Source: a virus (lineage: Duplodnaviria; Caudoviricetes). Taken from it: a DNA stretch of 64,000 nt. The first letter of the stretch is position 1; the number at the start of each line of letters is the position of its first letter. Location of the stretch: IMG/VR virus record IMGVR_UViG_3300020596_001154, positions 848-64,847 of that record. One strand, 5' to 3'. The position numbers were made by a program, and so were the translations under genes. This document shows positions 931 to 61,082 of this stretch, piece after piece. The notes beneath the pieces are model-generated. The model was given only the letters and a program-made list of their open reading frames with translations. It did not search any database and was not told the origin of the DNA.

Positions 931-1560
931 ATGAGTACTGAAAATAAAGACCAAGTAAAGCCCGAAGCTAAAGTTTCAGAAGGTTCTGAAAATTCAGCAA
1001 ACGTAGCGGCTATTAAGAAAGAACTTGAAGAAAAGCTCGAATTAGAGCAAGAATTGGCCCGAGCTAAAACTCGTGCTAAAGATACCGAGTCTAAGTTGCA
1101 AGAAACTGCAGACCAATTCAAGGCCCTTGCCCAACAATTTGATGACTTGAAGAAGAAATCAATGAGTAAGGAAGAACTAGAAGCTTCTGAAAAGAAACAA
1201 CTTTCAGAAGAAAACTCTAAGTTAAAAGAAAAAGTTTCTGGCTTAGAAGTTAGCCTAAAGCAAAAAGGCATTGAGATTACTCGTATTAAAGTAGCTCATG
1301 AAGAAAGACTTCCTGCCGACCTAACCGATATGGTTACCGGAGACAGTGAAGAAGAGATTCGTGCCAAGGCTAAGAAATTAGCTGCACATCTTAGAAGTAA
1401 TAGAGAGTCTGAGACTACTATTATTAATAAAGTTAGAGAAGTTGGTACTGAAACAGGAACAAAAGAAGGTGTACAACCTCAAGGACAGCAAACGGGAAGC
1501 AAGAAACCTCAAAACTTTCAAGAAGCGAAAGACGCTCTCTATAAAAAGTTTGTCGGTTAA
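931..1560 (+). CDS. Capsid scaffolding protein
   Basis: Charged coiled-coil with LPADLTDMVTGDSEEEIRAKAKKL motif, directly upstream of MCP. Confidence 0.65.
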   Translation: MSTENKDQVKPEAKVSEGSENSANVAAIKKELEEKLELEQELARAKTRAKDTESKLQETADQFKALAQQFDDLKKKSMSKEELEASEKKQLSEENSKLKEKVSGLEVSLKQKGIEITRIKVAHEERLPADLTDMVTGDSEEEIRAKAKKLAAHLRSNRESETTIINKVREVGTETGTKEGVQPQGQQTGSKKPQNFQEAKDALYKKFVG

Positions 1561-1620
1561 TTCTCCTTGTACTTAATTGAATGTGCACTTATAATTATTA
1601 ACTAAGGGAGAGGGACTAAT

Positions 1621-2658
1621 ATGTCAATATTACGCTTTACACCGAGTTCTGGAAGTATTCTTCCTGCACTTGGGGCGAACCGCGCTGAGCTTAACGATCT
1701 TTTCGAAGATGCAGTTACTAACCAGCTTAACGATGATAACTTACTTCGAACACTTCTACCTGAATTACCTATGGTCGGAAACCCATACGGAATCAGGCTA
1801 CGAACTGGTCGCAACGCTACCGCTGCAATGAAGGCAGAACCTGCTGATGGTTCGTTCTCACAAACAGACGCTAACTTCGGAAATCAAGACCGATTACGAG
1901 CTGCTGTTTTAGCTGAAATTGTACAAATCGGTATCCAAATTTCTGACTATATGATGGCTTCGGCTTCCGGCGCAGGCGGGCTAGATATCATGGTAGAAGA
2001 AATTGAAGGCGCGACAATGGACTTCCGAGATTTGGAAGAAAAACAATTGTTTGCTATCAACTCTGGAACCATTGCTGGTGAAAGTGCACAAAACTTTACC
2101 GGACTACGACATATCATCCAAGATAGTACTCCTACTCCTACGGACACGGATACTCTTTATGGACTTGATAGAACTGCTAGCACTGTTCTTTTCTCGAATG
2201 CCCAATACGGCGCAGTTCCTGGAACGCCAGAAGCTATTACACGACAAAAGTTAGATACAGCGATGCGTGACGTATTTACGGATGGAGCTCGTGGCTCTCT
2301 TTGGATTACGAAACCTGAGCAACTCGACAGTATCAATGACTTATTTTCCGCTGGACAACGCTTCATGAATGAAGTTGAAATCGAAGCCGGATTTGTAGTT
2401 CAAAGTTACCGTGGAATTCCAATCGTTGTGTCAGTAAACTGTTCGGATACGAACGGTGCTACACTAGTAAATGACGCTGCCGGACCTGGCGATGTGTTCT
2501 TGCTTGATCGACGTTTTATCGAAAAGCGAGTTCTAAAATCTCCTTCCTTAACAGCTATTGCTAAAGATGGACCAACTGAGAAAATGTATCTTGAAGCTTT
2601 CGAAAATCTCGTAGCCAAGAAACCAAATGCTCACGCAGCTATCTACGACTTGAACTAA
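1621..2658 (+). CDS. Major capsid protein (HK97 fold)
   Basis: 345 aa; strong RBS; FTGLRHII, YRGIPIVVS and C-terminal KKPNAHAAIYDL typical of HK97-like MCPs; followed by terminator. Confidence 0.8.
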   Translation: MSILRFTPSSGSILPALGANRAELNDLFEDAVTNQLNDDNLLRTLLPELPMVGNPYGIRLRTGRNATAAMKAEPADGSFSQTDANFGNQDRLRAAVLAEIVQIGIQISDYMMASASGAGGLDIMVEEIEGATMDFRDLEEKQLFAINSGTIAGESAQNFTGLRHIIQDSTPTPTDTDTLYGLDRTASTVLFSNAQYGAVPGTPEAITRQKLDTAMRDVFTDGARGSLWITKPEQLDSINDLFSAGQRFMNEVEIEAGFVVQSYRGIPIVVSVNCSDTNGATLVNDAAGPGDVFLLDRRFIEKRVLKSPSLTAIAKDGPTEKMYLEAFENLVAKKPNAHAAIYDLN

Positions 2659-7432: not shown

Positions 7433-7900
7433 ATGGCAAAAATGAATGCATCAGATGGCAGTCTACCTGCTTTTACATTTCGAGTAGTACTAGGCGACTT
7501 GTCAATCGGATTTTCCGAAATTTCAGGATTAAAACAGGAAACTGAAGAAATCCTTTACAGAAATGGCGACGAAGCAACTCGACAGCATAAACTCAGAGGC
7601 TTAACTACCTTTCAAGATGTAACCTTAAAACAAGGGTTACTTCGAGACGGAGTCGCTATACAAGAAGCTCTTACCACATTCAACATTGAATCTGGTACTG
7701 CACAAGCTTCCCAGTATGTTTATGGAGAAGTTCGAATTGTTCAAATGGACCAAAGCGGTGCCGATGTTCTTGAATGGACATTAGAAAATGCTTGGGTCAG
7801 TTCTGTTGAAATCGATTCTTATGATTCCAACTCTTCAGCACTACAGTTCTCTACTTTGACTTTGAAGCATGAAGGCCTACGCTACGCCAAGAAGTCCTAA
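7433..7900 (+). CDS. Tail tube protein 1 (T4 gp19/Afp1-like)
   Basis: FTFRV..GFSEISGL..YRNG..KLRG..DVTLKQG..W.LENAWVS..LKHEG. Confidence 0.85.
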   Translation: MAKMNASDGSLPAFTFRVVLGDLSIGFSEISGLKQETEEILYRNGDEATRQHKLRGLTTFQDVTLKQGLLRDGVAIQEALTTFNIESGTAQASQYVYGEVRIVQMDQSGADVLEWTLENAWVSSVEIDSYDSNSSALQFSTLTLKHEGLRYAKKS

Positions 7901-7920
7901 CAGACCTTTCTAAATATTAT

Positions 7921-7950
7921 TGGGACAGAAAGACTCTATATTCTGTCCCA
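7921..7950 (+). terminator. Inverted repeat after tube 1 (terminator/processing hairpin)
   Basis: TGGGACAGAA-10 nt-TTCTGTCCCA; right arm duplicated immediately after. Confidence 0.45.
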
Positions 7951-7975
7951 ATCTGTCCCAATTCAGTTTAACATC

Positions 7976-8455
7976 ATGCCTAAACTTACTTCTACAGTTC
8001 CTGGCGCAATTCCAGGTTTCATGTTCAGACTAGACGTACAAGGATTATCCATTGGACAAGCTTCCAAAATTGATGGACTTTCCAGTACGACAGACGTAGT
8101 TACATATAGAGGCGGAGCTGAGGGCGATACTCTTAGAAAACAAAAAGGGTTGACCCAGTATGATGATCTAGTTATCGAACACATCTATAAAGCTGACTTT
8201 ACTACATGGGCTTCGCTGGGATTAGTATTCGAACCCACCGCAGGTGCATTTGGAATATCATCCCCAATTTATAAATTTACTATTATAATCACTTTAATGG
8301 ATCATGATGGGAACGACAGGGTTCAATTCTTTGTGAAGAATGCTTGGATTAAATCTTATAAGATCAACAACTTAGATGCGAATACTTCAGCTTACGCAAT
8401 CGAGCAACTCACTTTAGCTCATGAAGGTTTTTCTAGAATAGGTGTGGACATATAA
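7976..8455 (+). CDS. Tail tube protein paralog 2
   Basis: gp19-like motifs (YRGG, KQKG, NAWIKSY, LDA, EQLTLAHEG). Confidence 0.8.
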   Translation: MPKLTSTVPGAIPGFMFRLDVQGLSIGQASKIDGLSSTTDVVTYRGGAEGDTLRKQKGLTQYDDLVIEHIYKADFTTWASLGLVFEPTAGAFGISSPIYKFTIIITLMDHDGNDRVQFFVKNAWIKSYKINNLDANTSAYAIEQLTLAHEGFSRIGVDI

Positions 8456-8994
8456 TGCCAGTATTCGAGACTTTCGATGATATAATTCCATCCTACAAAT
8501 TCTTAGTAGAAATACCAGGATTTGGGTCCGTGAATTTCTCTGCCGTAGAAGGAATGGGTTTTACCCACAGAGTCCAGAAGTACATCTCTGGAGGCACTTT
8601 CCAGTCTGCCGAATTGTATCTAGGAACAGACTATCATGATGTGACTCTTCGTCGAGGCATGAGTAGGTCAGCACAGTTATACGACTGGGCTAATCATGCC
8701 GTAGCTATCTATGACGAATATTCACAGCAAACTGAGTTTGGCCACCAATCTAAACAACAAAGTGTAGTACTTCCACACACTTATAAGGTTGATGTAACTA
8801 TTAGCCAGCTATCCGTAGCAGGCATTGTAATGAAAAAATGGGTGTTGACAGAAGCATGGGTAAAGGGTTACAATATCAGTAACTTAGATGCATCCCGTAG
8901 TGAACTAAGCTTTGAGTCTATCACACTATCATGTTCTGGAATTTTATCGGATTTCGCAGTAGACACTACCTCTCTTGCTGGAATTCTTGTCTAA
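8455..8994 (+). CDS. Tail tube protein paralog 3 (Afp5/tube-initiator-like)
   Basis: YKFLVEI, DVTLRRGM..LYDW, W.LTEAWVKGY..LDASRSELSFESITL. Confidence 0.8.
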   Translation: MPVFETFDDIIPSYKFLVEIPGFGSVNFSAVEGMGFTHRVQKYISGGTFQSAELYLGTDYHDVTLRRGMSRSAQLYDWANHAVAIYDEYSQQTEFGHQSKQQSVVLPHTYKVDVTISQLSVAGIVMKKWVLTEAWVKGYNISNLDASRSELSFESITLSCSGILSDFAVDTTSLAGILV

Positions 8995-30825: not shown

Positions 30826-31728
30826 ATGTCCGCACTTATTACATGGAAACCGAATGAAGATTCTGATAATATAACCTCCTATCATATTGAGCGGTCTATT
30901 GTAGGGGTAGAGACTTCAAACGTATCTCCCTATGCTATTACTGCTGGCCAGACTATTCAAATACGTATAGACGGTGGGAACCTACTCACTATAGCTTTAA
31001 ACGCTATTACAAGCGGCGCTGCAACTGCAGCCCAGATAGCTACCATTCTAGACGCAGCCCTAAATGCTCACGGAGGCTCTACCAAAGTTAGCTCTAACGG
31101 AACGAAAGTTATTATCTACTCTAACCGACAGACAGATAGAGGTGGAGTTAATATAAAGGGTGGTACAGCCCTTGCAGGGTTAGGAATCCTTGCAGGCATA
31201 CGCAAGTTTCAATCAGAAGTTGTTGATATTGCTCAAGTTTCACATCCGACCGATACTTATACAGATGAAGATGGTGACGCAGGATATCAATACAGACTCA
31301 GAGCTGAGAACTCTTCCTCGGCCCTTTCAGGGCCTACAGCATGGTTCTCCCCGTTCAAAGAGGTTATCCCAACTTCAGTGATCTACGGCTATTTAATTGA
31401 CCCTGAAGGAAAGGCCCTGGAAGACACCAGGGTACAGTTTGGTCCTCCCATCAACAAAAGACCCTCTGATGATGCACTAAGCGGCTTCCAGCCTAATTCC
31501 TCAGCCCAGGTAGGCATTTCCCTAGATCATAAAGAAGTTTACTCTGATGCAAACGGTTACTTCCAGTTTGTAGTCCCAGCTAACACGCCTATACGGATTA
31601 AGATTGACTCCGTAGGCCATGACTTTGTATATAAAACTCCTACTGCTGGGTCACAAAAAGACTTTACCGACCTAACAGAAGCTACCTCCTACGCAAGTTT
31701 TGCACTAGAAGGTGGATGGGGCATCTAA
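30826..31728 (+). CDS. Virion structural protein (FN3/Ig-like and carboxypeptidase-regulatory-like domains)
   Basis: ITW..ITSYHIERS..YTD..YQYRLRAENS; GYLIDPEGKAL..SDANGYFQF. Confidence 0.55.
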   Translation: MSALITWKPNEDSDNITSYHIERSIVGVETSNVSPYAITAGQTIQIRIDGGNLLTIALNAITSGAATAAQIATILDAALNAHGGSTKVSSNGTKVIIYSNRQTDRGGVNIKGGTALAGLGILAGIRKFQSEVVDIAQVSHPTDTYTDEDGDAGYQYRLRAENSSSALSGPTAWFSPFKEVIPTSVIYGYLIDPEGKALEDTRVQFGPPINKRPSDDALSGFQPNSSAQVGISLDHKEVYSDANGYFQFVVPANTPIRIKIDSVGHDFVYKTPTAGSQKDFTDLTEATSYASFALEGGWGI

Positions 31729-32503
31729 GGTGAGTAACTTAAGTTTACAGTTTTTAGGCCCGATTAATTATAAAGCCGAGATTCCTGAATCCCGGCTGTT
31801 TTTTCCACAGACAGGGGTAGCTATGCAGATGATTGAACTAAGAAGAAACGACAAACGGAGCTTCAATGTTCTTGTTAAGGACAATTTCGCCCGAGTCGTA
31901 AACTTACAAGGGGCTAGTATAAAGTTCGTCCTTAGGTCCAGAGATGCTATCCTAGGCCCAGACGGTGAGAGAGTCATTGTTGCCACACAGGAAGCTGTAA
32001 CTATCTATGATCAGCTATCTTATGAGCACATAGGCCAGTTCAATGTTGTATTAGGTGAGGATGCTACTGAGACTGCAGGACAGTATAGAGCAGAGTTTCA
32101 AGTACAACTCAAAGGCATTGCCCAGAACAGAAAGACCCCAGAGTATGCTCTAGCGGATGACCAGACCCTCGTTTTGCTCGTTGACGGTGAAGAGCAGACC
32201 ATTACTTTTGACTCTAACGATTTTGTTGATATATCTAATGCCACAGCTGCAGAAGTCGTGGCGGCTATTAATGCCCAGATTACAGGAGCTATTGCTTACG
32301 TGGTCCGGGCTAATATATGTGATAGCTATATTTTGATCCATTCGACCTCAGAGAACGGGTCTATTCAGGCCCACAGCGGGTCTGCTATCGATGCTCTAGG
32401 GTTCAACACCCTACTTCAAAGAGACCAAACAGTAAGCTTGCCAGATGAAACACTTATTGTTAATATCAAAGAAGATCTAGACGAGCAGGAAGTTATAGAC
32501 TAA
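31712..32503 (+). CDS. Virion structural protein (BppU-like N-terminus)
   Basis: LRRNDKR..VNLQGASIKF..TETAGQYRAEFQV. Confidence 0.45.
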   Translation: MDGASKVSNLSLQFLGPINYKAEIPESRLFFPQTGVAMQMIELRRNDKRSFNVLVKDNFARVVNLQGASIKFVLRSRDAILGPDGERVIVATQEAVTIYDQLSYEHIGQFNVVLGEDATETAGQYRAEFQVQLKGIAQNRKTPEYALADDQTLVLLVDGEEQTITFDSNDFVDISNATAAEVVAAINAQITGAIAYVVRANICDSYILIHSTSENGSIQAHSGSAIDALGFNTLLQRDQTVSLPDETLIVNIKEDLDEQEVID

Positions 32504-32940: not shown

Positions 32941-32960
32941 ACACATCCACCTCGTATATT
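32932..32960 (+). promoter_or_regulatory. Sigma70-type promoter, probably giving a leaderless SNF2 mRNA
   Basis: TTGACT-17 bp-TATATT; ATG 32968 lies 8 nt downstream with no RBS. Confidence 0.55.
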
Positions 32961-32967
32961 GTATGTT

Positions 32968-34464
32968 ATGAGTGAGATACCTCTTTGGCTTCAGTCTCCA
33001 CCGCCCAATCTGAAGCTCGACCAATTTAAGCTTCCACTGTATCCATTCCAAAATTCTGGGGCAATCTTCTTAGCACAAAACCCCAACAGCCTTTTACGGG
33101 ACTCTGTGGGACTTGGGAAATGCCCACAATCTCTTGCAGCGTTTAATGCTCTTGTACGGAAACAACCCACCTTAAAATGTTTAATCGTAGTCCCGGCTTC
33201 TCTCATCCACCAGTGGAAAGACGAGATTGAGAAATTCACTACTTTCAAATCTATTATCTATCGAGGTCAGAAAAAGACTAGAGATAATATAATGAAAACT
33301 TTTATAAGAGATCCAGAGATCCAGTGCCTTATAACTAACTATGAAATTGTCAGAAGGGACGAGGATAATTTCTTGGATCTACACCGTGAGTTTCCGTACA
33401 TCATTATATTCGACGAGGCCCAGAAAATAAAGAACCACAGATCTAAAACAGCACAGGCAATTAAGCTGCTATCAATGCGCTCTAGTGGAAATAAACTTCT
33501 TACAGCTACACCTGTATTCAATAACGTCCTAGATCTTTACGGACTATTTAAAATAATTAACCCGGCAGTTTTTGGGACGTATGTAAACTTCATGAATAAT
33601 TTTACTAATTATTATATGATGGATATGGGTAGTTACCAAATTCCTGTATACCAAGGCCCTAAAAATATCCCGCTACTTAAAGATAAAATCAAGGGCTATG
33701 TATTTGGCCGAGAAAAAAAAGACGTGTATAATCAACTACCTCCACTCACTTTCTCAGATAGATTTGTTGCCTTACCAGAACATCATCAAGAGATTTATGA
33801 TGCACTTGAGCAAGAGAAGCTAATTGTGGATGATGTTGAAACTAAGGATATCGACAGGCTGGCAGCTCTCACTCACATGCAGAGTTGTGCTGATGCTGTA
33901 GAGCATTTAAACACTACTGTAGCTCCTTCACACCCTAAAATAGACGAGTGTATCCAGATCATTGAAGAAGAGTTTGATGACGACAAAATCATTGTGTACT
34001 CTAAGTTTACCCGGACAATAGACATTCTAAATGCAGAACTAAAGAAAAAGAATATCGCCCACTTTAACATTGACGGCAGAATAGACGCAGCCCAAAGAGA
34101 TGCGAATAAGAAAGCGTGGGAAAATCATCCTGGAAAAGCCATCCTAGTTATCAGCTCTGCTGGTGGGGCTGGTTTAAATCTGCAAGCTGCTGGGACTATC
34201 ATCTTTTTAAACCGACCCTGGTCTTACGGAGAGCTATTACAAGTTTGCGGACGTATCCATAGAATCGGGACTAAGCATGAGAAATTGCTGATCATTAACT
34301 TATACTGTGAAGGCACCATTGACGAAGACATAAGAGATACGTTAAAGTCAAAGGAAGCCGTGTTTAATCGCCTATTCATTCAGGGAGGAGAAAATCTTGC
34401 AGAAAAAGACTTCAGCAGAGAAATCTGGAACAAAGCCTATCAAAGAGCTACTGCAAAAATTTAA
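32968..34464 (+). CDS. SNF2/DEAD-box superfamily 2 helicase
   Basis: LYPFQ, DSVGLGK, DEAQKIKN, LTATPVFN, GLNLQAA, QVCGRIHRIG. Confidence 0.9.
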   Translation: MSEIPLWLQSPPPNLKLDQFKLPLYPFQNSGAIFLAQNPNSLLRDSVGLGKCPQSLAAFNALVRKQPTLKCLIVVPASLIHQWKDEIEKFTTFKSIIYRGQKKTRDNIMKTFIRDPEIQCLITNYEIVRRDEDNFLDLHREFPYIIIFDEAQKIKNHRSKTAQAIKLLSMRSSGNKLLTATPVFNNVLDLYGLFKIINPAVFGTYVNFMNNFTNYYMMDMGSYQIPVYQGPKNIPLLKDKIKGYVFGREKKDVYNQLPPLTFSDRFVALPEHHQEIYDALEQEKLIVDDVETKDIDRLAALTHMQSCADAVEHLNTTVAPSHPKIDECIQIIEEEFDDDKIIVYSKFTRTIDILNAELKKKNIAHFNIDGRIDAAQRDANKKAWENHPGKAILVISSAGGAGLNLQAAGTIIFLNRPWSYGELLQVCGRIHRIGTKHEKLLIINLYCEGTIDEDIRDTLKSKEAVFNRLFIQGGENLAEKDFSREIWNKAYQRATAKI

Positions 34465-34564
34465 TGTTGTGATTTATAAATCACCTACAGGACTTCAGTA
34501 TATAAAAGAAGATCATGGAACAAACCAACACCCTCCAGTAGTTTTGCTAAAAAGTATTTGGGAA

Positions 34565-34673
34565 GCCCTAGGCAAACACAAAGATTCTAAAGCAGCTTAC
34601 AAGGCCTACCTAGCAGACAAGAAGGCATCAACAAAAGGAGAAACAAAGTGAACAAAGAATCGGAGATAAAGAC
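34565..34673 (+). repeat. Left copy of 109-bp imperfect direct repeat flanking the HEAT gene
   Basis: Gap-free alignment to 35872-35980. Confidence 0.85.
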
Positions 34674-35958
34674 AGCTGCTCTCATTAAAGCTCTCAAAGA
34701 TAAAGATCGGGGTGTTCGCTTGTCTGCTGCCAAAGCCCTAAGCAATCACACAGACTCTAAAGCTACCAACGCTCTCATTAAAGCTCTCGAAGATAAAAAT
34801 CTACATGTTCGCTGGTATGCTGCCGTAGCTCTAGGCAAACACAAAGATTCTAAAGCTACCGATGCCCTCATTAAAGCTCTCAAAGGTAAAAATCTACATG
34901 TTCGCTGGTATGCTACCATAGCCCTAGGCAAACACAAAGATTCTAAAGCAGCTACCGATGCTCTCATTGAAGCTTTCGAAGATCAAGATTCGGGTGTTCG
35001 CATGTCTGCTGCCAGAGCCCTAGGCAATCACAAAGATTCTAAAGCAGCTACTGATGCTCTCATTAAAGCTCTCCGAGATGAAGATTGGTATGTTCGCAAG
35101 TCTGCTACCATAGCCCTAGGCACTCGCACAGATTCTAAAGCCGCTACCTATGCTCTCATTAAAGCTCTCGAAGATCAAGATTCGGGTGTTCGCTGGTATG
35201 CTACCATAGCCCTAGGCAAACACAAAGATTCTAAAGCCGCTATCGATGCTCTCCTTAAAGCTCTCAAAGATGAAGATCGGAGTGTTCGCTTGTATGCTGC
35301 CAAAGCTCTAGGCAAACACAAAGATTCTAAAGTTACCGATGCTCTCATTAAAGCTCTCGAAGATAAAGATTGGTATGTTCGCAAGTCTGCTGCCATAGCC
35401 CTAGGCAATCACAAAGATTCTAAAGCGGCTACCGATGCTCTCATTAAAGCTCTCGAAGATAAAGATTGGTATGTTCGCAAGTCTGCTATCATAGCCCTAG
35501 GCACTCGCACAGATTCTAAAGCCGCTACCGATGCTCTCCTTAAAGCTTTCGAAGATAAAGATTGGCATGTTCGCTGGTCTGCTGCCTTAGCCCTAGGCAA
35601 TCACAAAGATTCTAAAGCTACCGATGCTCTCCTTAAAGCTCTCAAAGATGAAAATCCGGGTGTTCGCTGGTATGCTATCGACGCCCTAGGCAATCACAAA
35701 GATTCTAAAGCCGCTACCGATGCTCTCCTTAAAGCTCTCGAAGATAAAGATCCGAATGTTCGCAGGTATGCTGCCATAGCCATAGGCAAACACAAAGATT
35801 TTAAAGCTACCGATGCTCTCCTTAAAGCTCTCAAAGATAAAGATTGGTATGTTCGCAGGTATGCTGCCAGAGCCCTAGGCAATTACAAAGATTCTAAAGC
35901 AGCACACAAGGGGTTCAATGCAGACGAGAAGGCTTTTAAAAAAGGAGAAACAGAATGA
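34648..35958 (+). CDS. HEAT-repeat (PBS-lyase/alphaRep-like) protein, 13 repeats
   Basis: ALIKALxDxDxxVRxxAxxALGxHKDSK(A)ATD x13; GTG start with AAGGAG RBS. Confidence 0.9.
   Translation: MNKESEIKTAALIKALKDKDRGVRLSAAKALSNHTDSKATNALIKALEDKNLHVRWYAAVALGKHKDSKATDALIKALKGKNLHVRWYATIALGKHKDSKAATDALIEAFEDQDSGVRMSAARALGNHKDSKAATDALIKALRDEDWYVRKSATIALGTRTDSKAATYALIKALEDQDSGVRWYATIALGKHKDSKAAIDALLKALKDEDRSVRLYAAKALGKHKDSKVTDALIKALEDKDWYVRKSAAIALGNHKDSKAATDALIKALEDKDWYVRKSAIIALGTRTDSKAATDALLKAFEDKDWHVRWSAALALGNHKDSKATDALLKALKDENPGVRWYAIDALGNHKDSKAATDALLKALEDKDPNVRRYAAIAIGKHKDFKATDALLKALKDKDWYVRRYAARALGNYKDSKAAHKGFNADEKAFKKGETE
34678..35900 (+). repeat. Tandem array of 93/96-bp units
   Basis: Near-invariant blocks GTTCGC, GCCCTAGGC, GATTCTAAAG. 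Confidence 0.95.
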
Positions 35959-35980
35959 CCAAAGAATCGGAGATAAAGAC
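35872..35980 (+). repeat. Right copy of 109-bp direct repeat
   Basis: Matches 34565-34673. Confidence 0.85.
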
Positions 35981-36104
35981 CGCCTACCTATCAGCACGTC
36001 ATGCTTACGCTGGGGCTCGAAATAACTACTATGTAGCACGTGATGCTTACACATTAGCAAGTGATGGTCTAGACCACTACGGCGAGTTAAACAGAAGAAA
36101 ATAA
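35955..36104 (+). CDS. 49-aa heptad-repeat microprotein (absent from ORF track)
   Basis: MTKESEIKTA-YLSARHA-YAGARNN-YYVARDA-YTLASDG-...; ATGA and TAATG overlaps; RBS. Confidence 0.6.
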   Translation: MTKESEIKTAYLSARHAYAGARNNYYVARDAYTLASDGLDHYGELNRRK

Positions 36105-36676
36105 TGAGCGAAAATAAAAAACTACACAGTTATGAAGGCGAGAAAGCCACAAGGACCGGAGCTTACTACGAAAAGCTCCTGAAGAAGTTCTGTGGCCCAG
36201 ACTATCATAACTTACTTAGACCACAGAAGAGATCAGAAGTCCGACAGTTTCTTAGGTTTAGTAAGACTTCACTAGTCTACGGCATTCCCCAGGAAGTCAA
36301 TTGCTTTCGAACCGAAGCTTTCAATATTATCGTACACAACCATTTAACTGCCGTTAGAACTAACGACACAGCCCTAGTCAAATTAAACTTCCATGAACTA
36401 GGAGAGTTACCAGACACCACTATTGAAAACAGCATGGAACTTTTAACCCCAGATTTCCTTTGGCTAGATATCTGTACCACGAAAAATTCCTTCATCCCAC
36501 ATCAAATTATGTTGATAGTTAACATGCGAATGGAACAAGGCAAGCGTACAGTGATCTACTCTCCAGCAGCGGATGACCGGGCTTGGCAGCGTCTATATGA
36601 ATCAGACGTTTTCATTAAGTTCCTGAATAGGTTTAAAGAAAAGTCACAGGCTCTCGAAGTTAAGGGGTACGAATGA
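36104..36676 (+). CDS. Hypothetical; possible degenerate DnaC-like helicase loader
   Basis: DFLWLD..RMEQGKRTVIYS resembles the DnaC/IstB C-half; upstream of DnaB; no Walker A. Confidence 0.35.
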   Translation: MSENKKLHSYEGEKATRTGAYYEKLLKKFCGPDYHNLLRPQKRSEVRQFLRFSKTSLVYGIPQEVNCFRTEAFNIIVHNHLTAVRTNDTALVKLNFHELGELPDTTIENSMELLTPDFLWLDICTTKNSFIPHQIMLIVNMRMEQGKRTVIYSPAADDRAWQRLYESDVFIKFLNRFKEKSQALEVKGYE

Positions 36677-38019
36677 GCGAAGCAACACAATATTCCTATA
36701 ACGTTCTTTCAGGCTTATTCTCTGATAGAGTAATTAAACTGAAAGCGCAGATCAAGCAGAGCTACTTCACAGACCCAGCTCAAATGCAGCTATACACTTT
36801 CTGCACTGAATTTTATGCGAGTACTAAAACTGTACCAACAGTTCAAGTTGTAGAAGATGCATTTAAAGATAAACTGTGGGACATCCAACAAGAAGTAAAG
36901 ACAATTCTCGGCAAGCTCAATGTACTAATTGATGACGCCCTTTTCGAACACTCACTACAGAATTTCATACAAGACCATAAGATTTCACTCCTGGTCAGTA
37001 ACTCAAAAAAGGTCGCAAATGTACAGTCCATTGGCTTCGACAAAGTGCTAGATGATACTCGTAAAGTCCTGAACACAATTACCGGCATTGAGAATTCAAA
37101 GCTCAATATCTACAACTCTGATATTAAAGATGATGTTGACTCCTTCTTAACGAGAACGTTCGATAAGACTATTGATACTCCGGGCATCCCTGTTAGAAAT
37201 CCCATCATCAACAGAATTACTGGTGGTATGCAGCCGAAGCGCCTGTGGGTTATAGCTGGAGCTTCGGGTGAATGTAAGTCTACCTATCTTAAAAATCTAG
37301 CGTACGATTCTTTAATCGCTGGCGCTAATACTTTCTACTGTACTGTGGAAGAAGACCAAGATCAGGTTCTTAGAGTACTAACTACTATTCACGTCTTTAG
37401 AAAGTATAGTGTTATCCTAGAATCTGCCAAATATAAAACCTACACTGCTGAGGAAGAAAAACTATTCAGACAAGCCCAAGAAGACTTCCTTAGCTTGAGC
37501 AGCAACATAACTATTTTTGAATTGCCGCAACGCTATAGCTACTCTAATTTTGAGAGCATGTTAACGCAACAGAACTCAATCAAAAAGATCGACGCAGTAT
37601 TTCTAGATTACTTACTGCTCCTAAAGCCGGACAGTAAAAGATCTCAGCAGCATGAAGAGAGTGAACAGCTCTACAATGAAGCTAGACAGCTGGCTAATGG
37701 ATTCGACGGGGGCCGTGGTATATTTGTTTGTACCGCCCACCAAGTTAATCGAGAAGGCTGGAAGAAGGCTAAGAAACGTGGTCATTATGTAGCCGAGGAT
37801 TTAGCCAAGACAGTAGCAGCACAACAAGCCCCAGATTTAGTTATTGCTAATTATCTTGATCCTGAGCTTAGATCTCAAAATGAACTCAGACAAAACCTGC
37901 TAAAGAACAGAGGTGGAGAATTCTACAATGAACCTTGGATCTGTCCCATTCAGTTAGAGTGTGGAATTATCAACCCTCCTCTTGATATGGATGACATTCC
38001 AAAAGACCTTAAGCTATGA
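36673..38019 (+). CDS. Replicative DNA helicase (DnaB/gp41 family)
   Basis: GASGECKS Walker A, FLDYLLLL, AHQVNREG, LKNRGG. Confidence 0.85.
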   Translation: MSEATQYSYNVLSGLFSDRVIKLKAQIKQSYFTDPAQMQLYTFCTEFYASTKTVPTVQVVEDAFKDKLWDIQQEVKTILGKLNVLIDDALFEHSLQNFIQDHKISLLVSNSKKVANVQSIGFDKVLDDTRKVLNTITGIENSKLNIYNSDIKDDVDSFLTRTFDKTIDTPGIPVRNPIINRITGGMQPKRLWVIAGASGECKSTYLKNLAYDSLIAGANTFYCTVEEDQDQVLRVLTTIHVFRKYSVILESAKYKTYTAEEEKLFRQAQEDFLSLSSNITIFELPQRYSYSNFESMLTQQNSIKKIDAVFLDYLLLLKPDSKRSQQHEESEQLYNEARQLANGFDGGRGIFVCTAHQVNREGWKKAKKRGHYVAEDLAKTVAAQQAPDLVIANYLDPELRSQNELRQNLLKNRGGEFYNEPWICPIQLECGIINPPLDMDDIPKDLKL

Positions 38020-38412: not shown

Positions 38413-38855
38413 ATGGGCTTAAGTTTACACTACAAGTATTAAAAGACTACGGCTACGAGATCCCGCAGATCAATAGAAACATCTGCTGCCTTTTCCATGA
38501 AGAAACTCGTCCATCAGCCAGACTCTACGAAACAGGAAGCTACCACTGCTGGTCAGGTAAGTGTGGCGCACACTTCTCCGATGGCCTAGGCGCTATCATG
38601 CAGATTGAGGGCTGTCACTACAAAGACGCACTGACAATTGCTGGGAATAGATACGGATTTCAAGTACCTGAAAAAGACATGGTATCTATGAAAGAGTTTT
38701 ATTCACTAGAAGAGGCAATAGTAAAAAAGGTTATCGAACAAAAACCTATGCTATTCTTGTCAGTCTACAAAACTTTAGATACAATCATATCAGAACGTGA
38801 TTTAGATAAAATGAAAAAGCTTTATACAAAACTATCTCAAGGAGAAATTAAGTGA
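38409..38855 (+). CDS. Primase zinc-binding domain (CHC2), stand-alone
   Basis: CCLFHEETRPSARLY..YHCWSGKCG; start moved to ATG 38409. Confidence 0.75.
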   Translation: MNGLKFTLQVLKDYGYEIPQINRNICCLFHEETRPSARLYETGSYHCWSGKCGAHFSDGLGAIMQIEGCHYKDALTIAGNRYGFQVPEKDMVSMKEFYSLEEAIVKKVIEQKPMLFLSVYKTLDTIISERDLDKMKKLYTKLSQGEIK

Positions 38856-59160: not shown

Positions 59161-59862
59161 TTATGGTTGGAATACATTTCCAAATTGGTCGGTTAGAACG
59201 TTTGAGTTGTTTACACTAAATGAACAGCCAGAGCCATCAGTCGTGGTGAAACTCCCAGCAACTAGTTTGCTTAGACGTACTGTGAGTGCGCTGCCATTTT
59301 GGGAGAAGGAACTCACTAGACTGCCATTTTCAAGTCTTAGAATAACTTCTCTGAAAGCTGTTACAATACTGGGACAAGGAGTGATTAACTCTTTGATTTG
59401 ATACTGTGATGAACTTCCTGGAACTCCTTGATTACCCTGAACTCCTTGATCACCCTGAACTCCTTGATCACCCTGAACTCCTTGATCACCCTGAACTCCT
59501 TGATCACCCTGAACTCCTTGATCACCCTGCTGGCCTTCGTTTCCATCACATACGACACTTGCGCTTGTGACTTCAGAATCTTGTAGACTACCATCTCTGT
59601 TAAGGTCTGGTCCTGACTTAATAAGGGCCCCCGATTCAGATGTACAGACGCTAGAATCTGCAGTAAATCTTGCAGAACTAATGAGGCTGTTTTTACCACT
59701 AGAGCCATCTAACCCATTTACTCCTGCAGCTCCTGCAGCTCCTTGAAGCAGGGTGTAGGTTTCGTCTCCACATCCTACTAAAAATAGGGTTGCCGATGCA
59801 CAAACAGCGGAAACTAAAATTAATTTTGCTGCTCCGTACATTACTAGTTTAACTGGGTCCAT
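59161..59862 (-). CDS. Collagen-like lipoprotein
   Basis: LVGC lipobox, DLNRDGSLQDSE loop, (GDQGVQ)n triple-helix repeats. Confidence 0.75.
   Translation of the reverse strand: MDPVKLVMYGAAKLILVSAVCASATLFLVGCGDETYTLLQGAAGAAGVNGLDGSSGKNSLISSARFTADSSVCTSESGALIKSGPDLNRDGSLQDSEVTSASVVCDGNEGQQGDQGVQGDQGVQGDQGVQGDQGVQGDQGVQGNQGVPGSSSQYQIKELITPCPSIVTAFREVILRLENGSLVSSFSQNGSALTVRLSKLVAGSFTTTDGSGCSFSVNNSNVLTDQFGNVFQP
59421..59529. repeat. 18-bp tandem repeat x6 (collagen GDQGVQ)
   Basis: GAACTCCTTGATCACCCT units. Confidence 0.9.
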
Positions 59863-59885
59863 GATATTGTCCTTTCTAAAAATGG

Positions 59886-59924
59886 GCCGAAGCTACAAAG
59901 AGGGGGTAAGTTTGCAGCCTCGGC
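59886..59924 (-). other. 14-bp RNA stem-loop in intergenic leader
   Basis: GCCGAGGCTGCAAA / TTTGTAGCTTCGGC; the two mismatches are G-U pairs only on the minus-strand RNA. Confidence 0.5.
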
Positions 59925-59958
59925 TTCCGGCTTTCCTAACGGGGAAGTATAGGAAATT

Positions 59959-60459
59959 CTATTTAAAATTAATCCTAAGTCCACCTATAAAAAATGTTAC
60001 CACATAGTTTGAGTTAGCGCCAGCCTCTATAGAAATATTCTTCGTGATAGGAATGTCTACATAAGCGTTGGCCACTACTGTGGGTACAATCTCTACCACA
60101 CTATTTCTAATAGACCCTGGAAATTTGTCTACTTTGTTAGTAGTTTCACGTACATAGAGTCCGGCAGCTGCTCCCAAATGTAGGTGTGAAAAATATGTCC
60201 ACACTGGACCGGCCATCAACGTACCAGCATTTTTACCGAACGAGTCTTTAAAGTACACTGCAGCACCTTGGAAATTCTTATGGCGGTAAAGGAAGCCCAA
60301 AGCTGGGTGAAAGGTCCAAGTCCCATCTTCAGATAGTTTATAAGGCATGGCATCTCTAACCGTATCATCCACATTCAGAATCCCATGCAATGTTACTGCT
60401 ACTGGACTGATTGTCAGCGAGTGGCCTATAACTGCTGCGTATAGTAGAACTGAAATCAT
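59959..60459 (-). CDS. Putative outer-membrane beta-barrel protein
   Basis: Alternating hydrophobic strands, C-terminal GLRINFK. Confidence 0.55.
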   Translation of the reverse strand: MISVLLYAAVIGHSLTISPVAVTLHGILNVDDTVRDAMPYKLSEDGTWTFHPALGFLYRHKNFQGAAVYFKDSFGKNAGTLMAGPVWTYFSHLHLGAAAGLYVRETTNKVDKFPGSIRNSVVEIVPTVVANAYVDIPITKNISIEAGANSNYVVTFFIGGLRINFK

Positions 60460-60678
60460 TTATTTCTCGATTTTAGTATAAGAGTAGCCACCGTTTCGGA
60501 CTCTTTTAAAGAAGAAGCTCCCTTTAGATTCTGCAGACTGGAAGTCTTCATATATATCTAGAGGCACATCCTTATATTGATAGACAATCCCGCTTTTAAA
60601 GCGTACTTCTAAAACCTTCTCGGTTTTCTTATACCCAATAGAGGCAATATTTGTTGAATCGACAGCAGTTCTTCTCAT
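60460..60678 (-). CDS. KTSC domain protein
   Basis: VDSTNIASIGY..LEVRFKSG.VYQY.DVP..AESKGSFF. Confidence 0.9.
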   Translation of the reverse strand: MRRTAVDSTNIASIGYKKTEKVLEVRFKSGIVYQYKDVPLDIYEDFQSAESKGSFFFKRVRNGGYSYTKIEK

Positions 60679-61082
60679 ATAGAGGTTCTCCCTTTGTTCA
60701 TTTCATTTAGTATTCGCGTGGCTACAGCTGAAATCTGTTTGTTTCTGAGATATACGCAATAAGCAGATAGAATTTGAGTGTGACTTTTTGTCATTGCATC
60801 AAATACACAGCTAAAGCCGAGGTCTTTTTTCAGCTTCTTTTTAGTAGAAGCCCAGTTCACGAACTTAACTTTACCCTTAAGTTTTAGAAGACCTAATCCT
60901 GCCGGCAATTCGAAAGTAACTTCTATTGGAGTATTTGGAAGTAGAAGCTCTTCACTATATATGAAGACTCCTTTTGAAGAGATATCCCTCAAATTTTTAT
61001 TCATATAGGAGTCATCTAATAATTTAAGAGTGGCTCTTTCAGATATTAACGGTATGCGAATTTCACTTCGTCGTTCTTTCAT
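60675..61082 (-). CDS. PilZ domain protein
   Basis: RxxxR (ERRSEIRIP) and DxSxxG (DISSKG) motifs. Confidence 0.8.
   Translation of the reverse strand: MKERRSEIRIPLISERATLKLLDDSYMNKNLRDISSKGVFIYSEELLLPNTPIEVTFELPAGLGLLKLKGKVKFVNWASTKKKLKKDLGFSCVFDAMTKSHTQILSAYCVYLRNKQISAVATRILNEMNKGRTSI

Follow-up and report, generated by a model that had tools for sequence, protein, structure and literature searches.

A phage HEAT-repeat gene with near-identical units, an alphaRep-like variable face and probable turnover of units under diversifying selection

The gene described here encodes a 436-residue HEAT-repeat protein of a tailed phage and lies on a 64,000-nucleotide stretch of DNA (the window) that corresponds to positions 848–64,847 of the virus record IMGVR_UViG_3300020596_001154 and comprises nearly the whole of this 64,847-base record. 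We interpret the gene product as an alpha-solenoid binder that evolves through the gain, loss and exchange of repeat units under diversifying selection, with no dedicated mutator, and assign this interpretation a probability of roughly 70%. Among the observations behind it are an excess of amino-acid replacements at the very positions that are varied in artificial alphaRep proteins, and differences in unit number and unit mosaicism between two strains with almost identical flanks. The gene and its array are located as follows.

34648..35958, plus strand: HEAT-repeat gene, an open frame of 436 amino acids whose GTG start overlaps the stop codon of the upstream open reading frame (GTGA)
34675..35904, plus strand: array of 13 tandem HEAT units, anchored on the invariant GTT CGC (Val-Arg)

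Anchoring on GTT CGC reproduces the 13 units of 93 or 96 bp described in the original prediction, which was made from the sequence alone. Six units (u1, u2, u7, u10, u12 and u13) are 93 bp (31 residues) long and seven are 96 bp (32 residues). Tandem Repeats Finder reports a repeat of period 96 with 12.9 copies, 84% matches and a score of 1530 at 34677–35903, and a nucleotide profile made from the units recovers 13 full units in the window with E-values from 2e-31 to 1.1e-27. Across codon columns 1–29 of the unit, 52 of the 87 nucleotide columns are invariant, and the variable ones occupy 15 of 29 first, 13 of 29 second and 7 of 29 third codon positions. Seven codon columns (12, 13, 16, 17, 19, 20 and 24) are hypervariable and eleven are variable in all, the remainder of columns 1–29 being referred to here as the scaffold. 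The predicted near-invariance of the scaffold codons is borne out by a synonymous difference of only 0.053 per site. All details of the predicted variable sites were reproduced, but the list was incomplete, as columns 8, 10, 25 and 26 vary too. In the codon table, the codon following GTT CGC is TTG, TGG, ATG, AAG or AGG, and thus of the form NNG, in 13 of 13 units, and the codon preceding GTT is GGT, CAT, TAT, AGT or AAT, and thus of the form NNT, again in 13 of 13. The patchwork of recurring sub-blocks is likewise found again, with ACT CGC ACA common to u5 and u9 and CAA GAT TCG GGT common to u4 and u6.

The protein belongs to the Pfam families HEAT_2 (PF13646; 306.4 bits against a cut-off of 27.7, E = 3.8e-93, 6 stretches) and HEAT_PBS (PF03130; 202.6 bits against a cut-off of 20.9, 8 stretches). 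A single-sequence AlphaFold2 model, with a mean predicted local distance difference test score (pLDDT) of 91.8 and a predicted template modelling score (pTM) of 0.81, contains 27 helices, two for each unit and a C-terminal helix of lower confidence, and predicts that stacked antiparallel helix pairs form a continuous alpha-solenoid. Within unit 8 (residues 231–262), the model places columns 12–20 on the helix formed by residues 242–253, with column 24 as the first residue past the helix. The spacing of columns 13, 16, 17, 20 and 24 (i, i+3, i+4, i+7 and i+11) would place these residues on one face of the helix.

A sequence search of the Protein Data Bank returned 22 distinct sequences at E <= 1e-10, 20 of which are artificial alphaRep proteins or alphaRep fusions (E = 4.4e-83 to 5e-11), the remainder being the natural HEAT-repeat protein 6veh (E = 1e-27) and CpcE 5n3u (E = 1.2e-12); that alphaRep proteins are the top matches accords with the prediction of a natural alphaRep-like HEAT array. 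According to its description (PMC3754942), the alphaRep library carries variable positions 18, 19, 22, 23, 26 and 30 within a 31-residue motif and mimics the side-chain distribution of the natural repeats of this family. When Val-Arg is set at positions 20–21, these six positions correspond to columns 12, 13, 16, 17, 20 and 24, which are the most variable of the array, so that six of the seven hypervariable columns are alphaRep library positions. The claim that the variable codons are the helix-2 positions randomised in alphaRep is upheld for these six columns. The phage protein therefore displays the characteristics of the alphaRep-type subfamily, namely a unit of about 31 residues, a conserved scaffold and the six variable positions, with column 19 varying in addition. 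The likeness is to some degree circular, because alphaRep was designed from the natural family and copied its variable positions.

In common with alphaRep proteins (for example PDB 3ltj, 4zv6 and 6fsq), the phage protein has a 31-residue helix-turn-helix unit with the scaffold consensus ..LIKALKD.D..VR..AA.ALG.., six variable positions and a number of units that varies from protein to protein. It differs in being natural rather than designed and in lacking the designed N- and C-caps, in its linker (..HKDSKA(A)T rather than ..IGDERAV), in having units of either 31 or 32 residues, and in its additional variation at column 19 (alphaRep position 25) and columns 8, 10, 25 and 26. Among database proteins, 1214 match at E <= 0.001 and vary at the same places of the motif. 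These natural bacterial and archaeal HEAT_2/HEAT_PBS proteins share the Pfam families and the motif-level pattern of variation, but none is closer to the phage protein than 46% identity among proteins of near length or 53% among shorter ones (88 proteins at E <= 1e-10). Their genomic arrays differ further, in that synonymous sites are saturated there whereas the phage units are nearly alike, and the phage context itself is rare.

The variable columns bear the mark of selection for amino-acid change. In a Nei-Gojobori comparison of the 13 units with one another, the seven hypervariable columns have 0.40 nonsynonymous (pN) and 0.12 synonymous (pS) differences per site, giving a dN/dS of 4.5, whereas the scaffold columns have a pN of 0.060, a pS of 0.053 and a dN/dS of 1.1; a dN/dS comparison among the units was one of the checks proposed with the original prediction, and in this form, by group of columns, it comes out in its favour. 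A minimum-step count, which is free of pairwise averaging, finds 23 replacement steps in these seven columns, where the synonymous rate of the array predicts 5.1 (Poisson P = 5e-9); for the scaffold the count is 11 and the prediction 12.1. Diversifying selection on the surface codons is thus supported, the replacement rate exceeding the synonymous rate only there. As a control, we used eight HEAT arrays of archaeal and bacterial genomes, treated with the same unit profile (L008–L015, from 11 loci found; L016–L018, with matches of only 52–59 query residues, were dropped), in which unit pS is 0.55–0.81 and hypervariable pN is 0.50–0.66; the control is coarse, since the profile recovered 3–6 partial units per array. 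Set against these values, the scaffold pS of 0.053 implies that the phage units are either very recent copies or are kept alike. Despite being young or homogenised, they have surface residues nearly as diverse as those of old arrays.

A different account of the same figures would need no positive selection: the surface positions might simply be unconstrained while gene conversion evens out the rest, in a structural or scaffolding solenoid with no specific evolving partner. The same positions do vary across the whole HEAT_PBS family in cellular genomes (see also PMC3754942), the scaffold ratio is near 1, and the dominant allele looks fixed within samples. Neutrality, however, forbids replacements from exceeding synonymous changes per site, and the excess is about 4.5-fold to 5.7-fold in the seven columns, with a step count that departs from expectation as strongly as given above. 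Moreover, conversion works on whole tracts and cannot alone spare the replacement differences. We therefore hold an array free of positive selection to be improbable.

Evidence for unit turnover comes from a contig designated L004, the one near-identical contig obtained when metagenomes were scanned with the SNF2-family helicase that precedes the HEAT gene. Relative to the window, 9 of 6191 alignment columns differ upstream and 2 of 2814 downstream, so that the flanks are about 99.9% identical, and yet the HEAT gene of L004 has 9 units (309 amino acids) as opposed to 13. The original prediction had named an array invariant across populations and relatives as the outcome that would count against it, and the array is not invariant; its proposal of inter-repeat recombination together with selection is favoured both by this difference in unit number at near-identical flanks and by the confinement of the replacement excess to the surface codons. 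Units 1–7 of L004 are those of the window save for one synonymous base. Unit 8 begins as the 5' part of window u9 and continues into a 3' end that resembles u10 or u1. Unit 9 combines pieces of u11, u12 and u13 and has four additional changes, of which two lie in columns 12 and 13; it contains codons that are absent from the window array, namely TCG GAT, CTC, and GCT in column 1. Differences of this kind would be the signature of recombination with a breakpoint inside the array, rather than of even mutagenesis of all units. Outside the array, L004 lacks two bases at window positions 31856–31857 (near position 3400 of L004), which breaks a 263-residue open reading frame (31712–32503) and leaves one of 109 residues, as a frameshift allele or an assembly error, and it lacks one base at 38646, inside the open reading frame of the primase zinc-finger protein.

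Mosaicism is also evident within the window itself, where u6 equals u4 in columns 8–13 and u3 in columns 16–26, and 138 of 231 pairs of informative sites are incompatible with a single tree. The presence of RecA-like, Cas4-like and SbcCD-like proteins encoded by the phage itself was counted in favour of recombination. A second, unrelated viral contig, L019, carries a 4-unit array in which the scaffold codons are identical and columns 12, 13, 17, 20 and 24 differ; the observation concerns units 2–4 of a 329-residue protein (1287–2276, minus strand) with a coiled-coil-like N-terminal part, four alphaRep-type HEAT units and a cysteine-rich, zinc-ribbon-like C-terminus.

Population data were taken from Logan contigs and unitigs, which give presence and a rough word depth only. 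The stretch 33800–36800 is present in 11 public runs, of which 10 are microbial-mat metagenomes (2018) and one is a hypersaline-lake metagenome (2017). In run X1, which may be the source sample, window-identical unitigs over the variable codons of u1, u7, u12 and u13 have depths of 55.4, 53.9, 49.5 and 44, compared with 56.1 and 52.8 in single-copy flanks; in run X2 the corresponding depths are 23.9, 12.5, 15.4 and 10.6, compared with 15.1 and 15. In both runs these depths fit one dominant allele, not a swarm. Depths within the array of up to 950, as against 56 in the flanks, are no evidence for other arrays, since unitigs collapse the words common to the 13 units. We note that some unit variants in the mat metagenomes, such as GGT>GAT at 35660, are deeper than the window-type unit. 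In run X9, flank pieces are 0–4 letters off the window per 125–251 bases, and a 427-base contig matches 35053–35237 apart from 22 differences and resumes, after 19 other letters, at 35920; 15 of its 18 listed differences fall in the 11 variable codon columns. Coverage gaps in runs X7 and X9 are given no weight here. A relative from the hypersaline lake combines near-identical flanks with different units and a different tail.

The units are 84% alike over 96 bp, both contigs were assembled from metagenomes, and Logan unitigs are interrupted within the array, none of the listed pieces crossing the whole of it. Mis-joined short reads might therefore in principle account for how many units there are and in what order, and hence for part of the mosaic and for the difference between 13 and 9 units. 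Such an artefact is nevertheless very unlikely. Units 1–7 recur base for base in the independent contig L004, apart from the synonymous base, and exact unitigs of 102–240 nucleotides cover several unit junctions in runs X1, X2 and X7. The codons of L004 unit 9 that are absent from the window array mean that this unit is not a re-joining of the same reads, and the codon-level pattern holds within each unit, independently of unit order.

The concentration of changes at the first two codon positions had also raised the idea of targeted mutagenesis, in which the reverse transcriptase of a diversity-generating retroelement (DGR) would copy an adenine-rich template and rewrite the variable codons of the units. 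The phage array does share with DGR targets its location in a phage gene and the variation at the first two positions of a few surface codons, and its fixed third bases (NNG, NNT and NNA columns) resemble AAY-templated DGR variation; moreover, the record is only about 50% complete (CheckV completeness 50), and the missing part could be thought to hold the enzyme. The original prediction had itself reported no reverse transcriptase or template in the window, and this holds when the search is extended: the 64,847-base record yields 0 matches to RVT_1, for which 3 of 14 control genomes are positive by the same search, and neither the nucleotide profile nor blastn finds a unit-like template copy in the window outside 34563–35904 (next match, E = 0.2), the sole extra unit-like sequence being a partial unit at 34563–34597. 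Nor is there adenine specificity, as A stands in every unit at 14 nucleotide columns and is never present in 10 of the 35 variable columns. The near-identity of units 1–7 between the two strains, which differ instead in unit number and mosaics, and the presence of window-identical unitigs over the variable codons at flank depth, are likewise at odds with such a mechanism. Known targets of DGRs consist of a single variable region, located at the 3' end of the gene and mostly of C-type-lectin or Ig-like fold, rather than of 13 tandem units; the phage gene differs from them in having 13 tandem units of a HEAT solenoid instead of one C-terminal variable region.

The third codon positions themselves call for no special enzyme. 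Only 3 of the 32 minimum steps at variable codons fall on a third position, a share that is significantly below one third (P = 0.0018) but compatible with the 18.6% that would result if replacement changes alone were retained (P = 0.13), and the frozen third positions are explained by low neutral divergence combined with a filter that keeps amino-acid changes. This pattern, together with the seven units left unchanged between strains, also speaks against the dedicated diversification system that had been proposed. The sequence signature is not that of a DGR, the evidence calls for no dedicated mutator, and we regard DGR-type mutagenesis as having a negligible chance of being correct.

Several points weigh against a reading based on unit recombination and selection. 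Two tests gave no signal of recombination. In one that resembles the pairwise homoplasy index, incompatibility between sites did not increase with distance inside the 87-nucleotide unit (725 of 2000 permutations gave the observed value or a lower one), and in a Mantel test similarity between units did not depend on how close they lie in the array (r = 0.09, reached by 1112 of 5000 permutations), so that recurrent mutation at a few selected sites could give part of the mosaic. L004 is the one other complete allele found, so that rates cannot be estimated, and each of the two arrays is a repeat assembled from short reads. Because rare variants are lost from Logan contigs, minor alleles could exist; the scaffold ratio near 1 leaves little visible purifying selection on this short time scale; and the reverse-transcriptase search, given the completeness of the record, covers only the record in hand.

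With these reservations, we suggest the following course of events. The gene would encode an alpha-solenoid of 436 residues made of 13 HEAT units of the PBS-lyase-like (HEAT_2, alphaRep-type) family, the units being copies of each other that are either young or have been homogenised. Through unequal crossing-over and gene conversion, as forms of homologous recombination between units during phage replication, units would be added, removed and reshuffled, and the scaffold codons would at the same time be kept alike. Selection would favour units that differ at the helix-B residues lining the concave face, as a result of which nearly every change retained would alter the amino acid and would lie at the first or second position of one of a few codons. 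The protein would act inside the infected cell by binding a host or phage protein.

The HEAT gene is bracketed by two direct copies of a 113-nucleotide junction repeat, 83% identical and spaced 1307 nucleotides apart, each of which is shared with a small open reading frame.

34564..34676, plus strand: upstream copy of the junction repeat, with half a HEAT unit (ALGKHKDSKAA), the tail, AAAGGAG, the stop/start overlap and the head N-K-E-S-E-I-K-T-A
35871..35983, plus strand: downstream copy of the junction repeat, with the end of u13, the tail, AAAGGAG, an ATGA overlap and the head of the next small open reading frame
34397..34651, plus strand: upstream small open reading frame, 84 amino acids from the first TTG (the true start may be further in), whose C-terminus is a partial HEAT unit followed by the tail of the HEAT gene
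35955..36104, plus strand: downstream small open reading frame, 49 amino acids, with the head M-T-K-E-S-E-I-K-T-A like that of the HEAT gene, identical in L004

The consensus of the junction runs from ALG.[HY]KDSKAA through a short tail and a Shine-Dalgarno-like AAAGGAG to GTGA or ATGA and [NT]-K-E-S-E-I-K-T-A, and the motif occurs twice in the window as against 0 times in 100 shuffles. By virtue of these copies, the upstream open reading frame ends like the HEAT gene and the downstream one begins like it, and the overlapping stops and starts make the three genes look translationally coupled. The upstream frame gives the second protein match (E = 5.7e-5), and the nucleotide unit profile matches its partial unit at 34563–34597 (E = 8.3e-8); it has no Pfam, PHROG, PADLOC or NCBIfam family, and the downstream frame has none in Pfam, PADLOC or NCBIfam. 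The arrangement has the appearance of a cassette edge or of a remnant left by the tandem duplication of a gene. Other junction variants occur in the mat runs X1, X2 and X7, with loose ends at window positions 34563, 34936, 35589 and 35966; in one, the head codons are joined directly to ...ALGKHKDSK, and another has a tail/head junction reading GCTTTTAAAAAAGGAGATATAAAATGACG.

It is probable that this head-tail family has more members, as arrays or genes, either in the community or in that half of the genome which the record lacks. More speculatively, the HEAT gene may be a member of a phage cassette family of HEAT-array binders, in which conserved head/tail junctions also provide the following gene with its ribosome-binding site, arrays are exchanged whole or unit by unit among co-occurring phages, and a binder of a host protein, for example a defence inhibitor, is retargeted by unit shuffling. 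The hints counted towards this idea are the 113-nucleotide junction duplication, the further junction and unit variants in the mat metagenomes, the hypersaline-lake relative with its different units and tail, and the difference between 13 and 9 units. We give it a small but real chance; if it were true, nature would here have an equivalent of the alphaRep library, which was made by the polymerisation of micro-genes.

The HEAT gene lies in the replication module of the genome, between the genes for two helicases, the second of which is followed on its 3' side by a primase zinc-finger gene and then a family-A DNA polymerase.

32959..34464, plus strand: SNF2-family helicase, the upstream neighbour (Pfam SNF2-rel_dom, 1.3e-42; Helicase_C, 1.1e-18; phrog_62)
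36673..38019, plus strand: DnaB-like replicative helicase, the downstream neighbour (PHROGs and Pfam)

A Pfam scan of 73 open reading frames (E <= 1e-5) together with PHROGs identifies a tailed phage with a contractile tail. The structural genes, assigned from both sources, encode an SU10-type major capsid protein, the sheath, three gp19-like tube paralogues, the baseplate proteins gp25, J and V, and a lysozyme; they are followed by the replication and recombination module, assigned in the same way, with the SNF2 helicase, the DnaB-like helicase, the primase zinc finger, the family-A DNA polymerase, RecA, ClpP, a Cas4-like nuclease and SbcCD-like proteins. To judge from its gene content, the genome that carries the HEAT gene is that of a myovirus-like phage, known only from microbial-mat and hypersaline metagenomes. 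Its GC content is 40.6%. IMG/VR labels the record a provirus; despite this label, the 73 open reading frames include no integrase, the window has no tRNA gene and no obvious host genes, and the gene content resembles that of a lytic myovirus. The three gp19-like tail tube genes are adjacent paralogues at 7433–8994 (Pfam Phage_T4_gp19; E = 6e-25, 6e-21 and 2e-20), and the leftward-transcribed arm contains, at 59161–61082 on the minus strand, genes for a collagen-triple-helix repeat protein, a KTSC-domain protein and a PilZ-domain protein, which are unusual cargo for a phage.

No related phage suitable for a comparison of gene order was found. A blastn search with 5,061 bases against 50,697 phage records gave 0 matches, and by tblastn the closest phage DNA polymerases are at most 27.6% identical. 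In the viral contig collection, the SNF2 helicase retrieved nothing usable, the HEAT protein one weak locus only (L003), and the DNA polymerase 12 loci of 22–25% identity, none of which was usable for synteny.

Phages seem to carry HEAT arrays of this type only very rarely. With tblastn, the set of 50,697 phage records yielded no match at E <= 1e-8 and just 2 weak matches at E <= 0.01. A strict degenerate DNA pattern of one canonical unit was found in 2 contigs of the viral collection, one of them L019, the window's own record being left out, and an exact 29-nucleotide unit pattern in 0 viral contigs and 0 genome contigs. Full-text literature searches returned nothing relevant on phage-encoded HEAT arrays of this kind.

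None of the libraries searched assigns a function to the HEAT protein. It has no PHROGs family, and of its 4 matches at E <= 0.001 in a viral fold library none has a known function. For Tad8, an inhibitor of type II Thoeris (PF25189) described as a loop-inserting homodimer (PMC13728456), the scores add up to 31.2 bits, above the cut-off of 27 that applies to the protein as a whole, but 0 stretches pass alone, the best comprising residues 132–150 at positions 24–42 of the 76-position profile. Matches to PADLOC defence proteins involve HEAT segments only (positions 729–949 of 1972 in HEAT-ARM_XIII and 424–499 of 503 in RT_UG21). Both the Tad8 and the PADLOC matches are generic repeat similarity.

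A phycobilisome-directed role, as a bilin lyase of the CpcE/CpcF type or a degradation factor of the NblB type in a cyanophage, was suggested by the fact that HEAT_PBS is the repeat of these proteins, that NCBIfam lists CpcE, NblB and CpcF for the phage protein, that CpcE 5n3u is among the sequence matches in the Protein Data Bank, and that the habitat is a microbial mat. The NCBIfam scores are nevertheless far under the curated cut-offs (186.9 against 330 for CpcE, 109.5 against 220 for CpcF and 132.5 against 300 for NblB) and are a sum of generic repeat similarity over several stretches. Nor is a particular host indicated: the window has no tRNA gene, and the closest phage DNA polymerases are distant. 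We judge a phycobilisome-directed function to be extremely unlikely.

The protein is most likely an intracellular binder of a host or phage protein, as suggested by its position among replication genes, the absence of a link to the structural module and the signs that selection diversifies the residues on a single face of what is otherwise a binder scaffold. A role in host takeover or against host defence would be the most natural guess and would fit these signs of diversifying selection.

Repeat arrays in which units turn over while a few recognition residues vary are well known from TAL effectors and from the ankyrin and leucine-rich-repeat arrays of symbionts and large viruses. These systems share with the phage array near-identical tandem units, a few recognition residues in each unit and polymorphism in unit number through recombination, and differ from it in fold and organism. 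The phage gene is thus a new phage-borne member of a well-known repeat family, in which ordinary unit turnover and selection are unusually clear, and not a new mechanism of diversification or mutagenesis. HEAT arrays of this type are common in bacteria and archaea, and very few of their natural partners are known; the product of the present gene is a candidate, amenable to study, for a phage protein that is changing the target of its binding surface, perhaps in response to host defence, and its array would display in nature the principle that alphaRep engineering copied.

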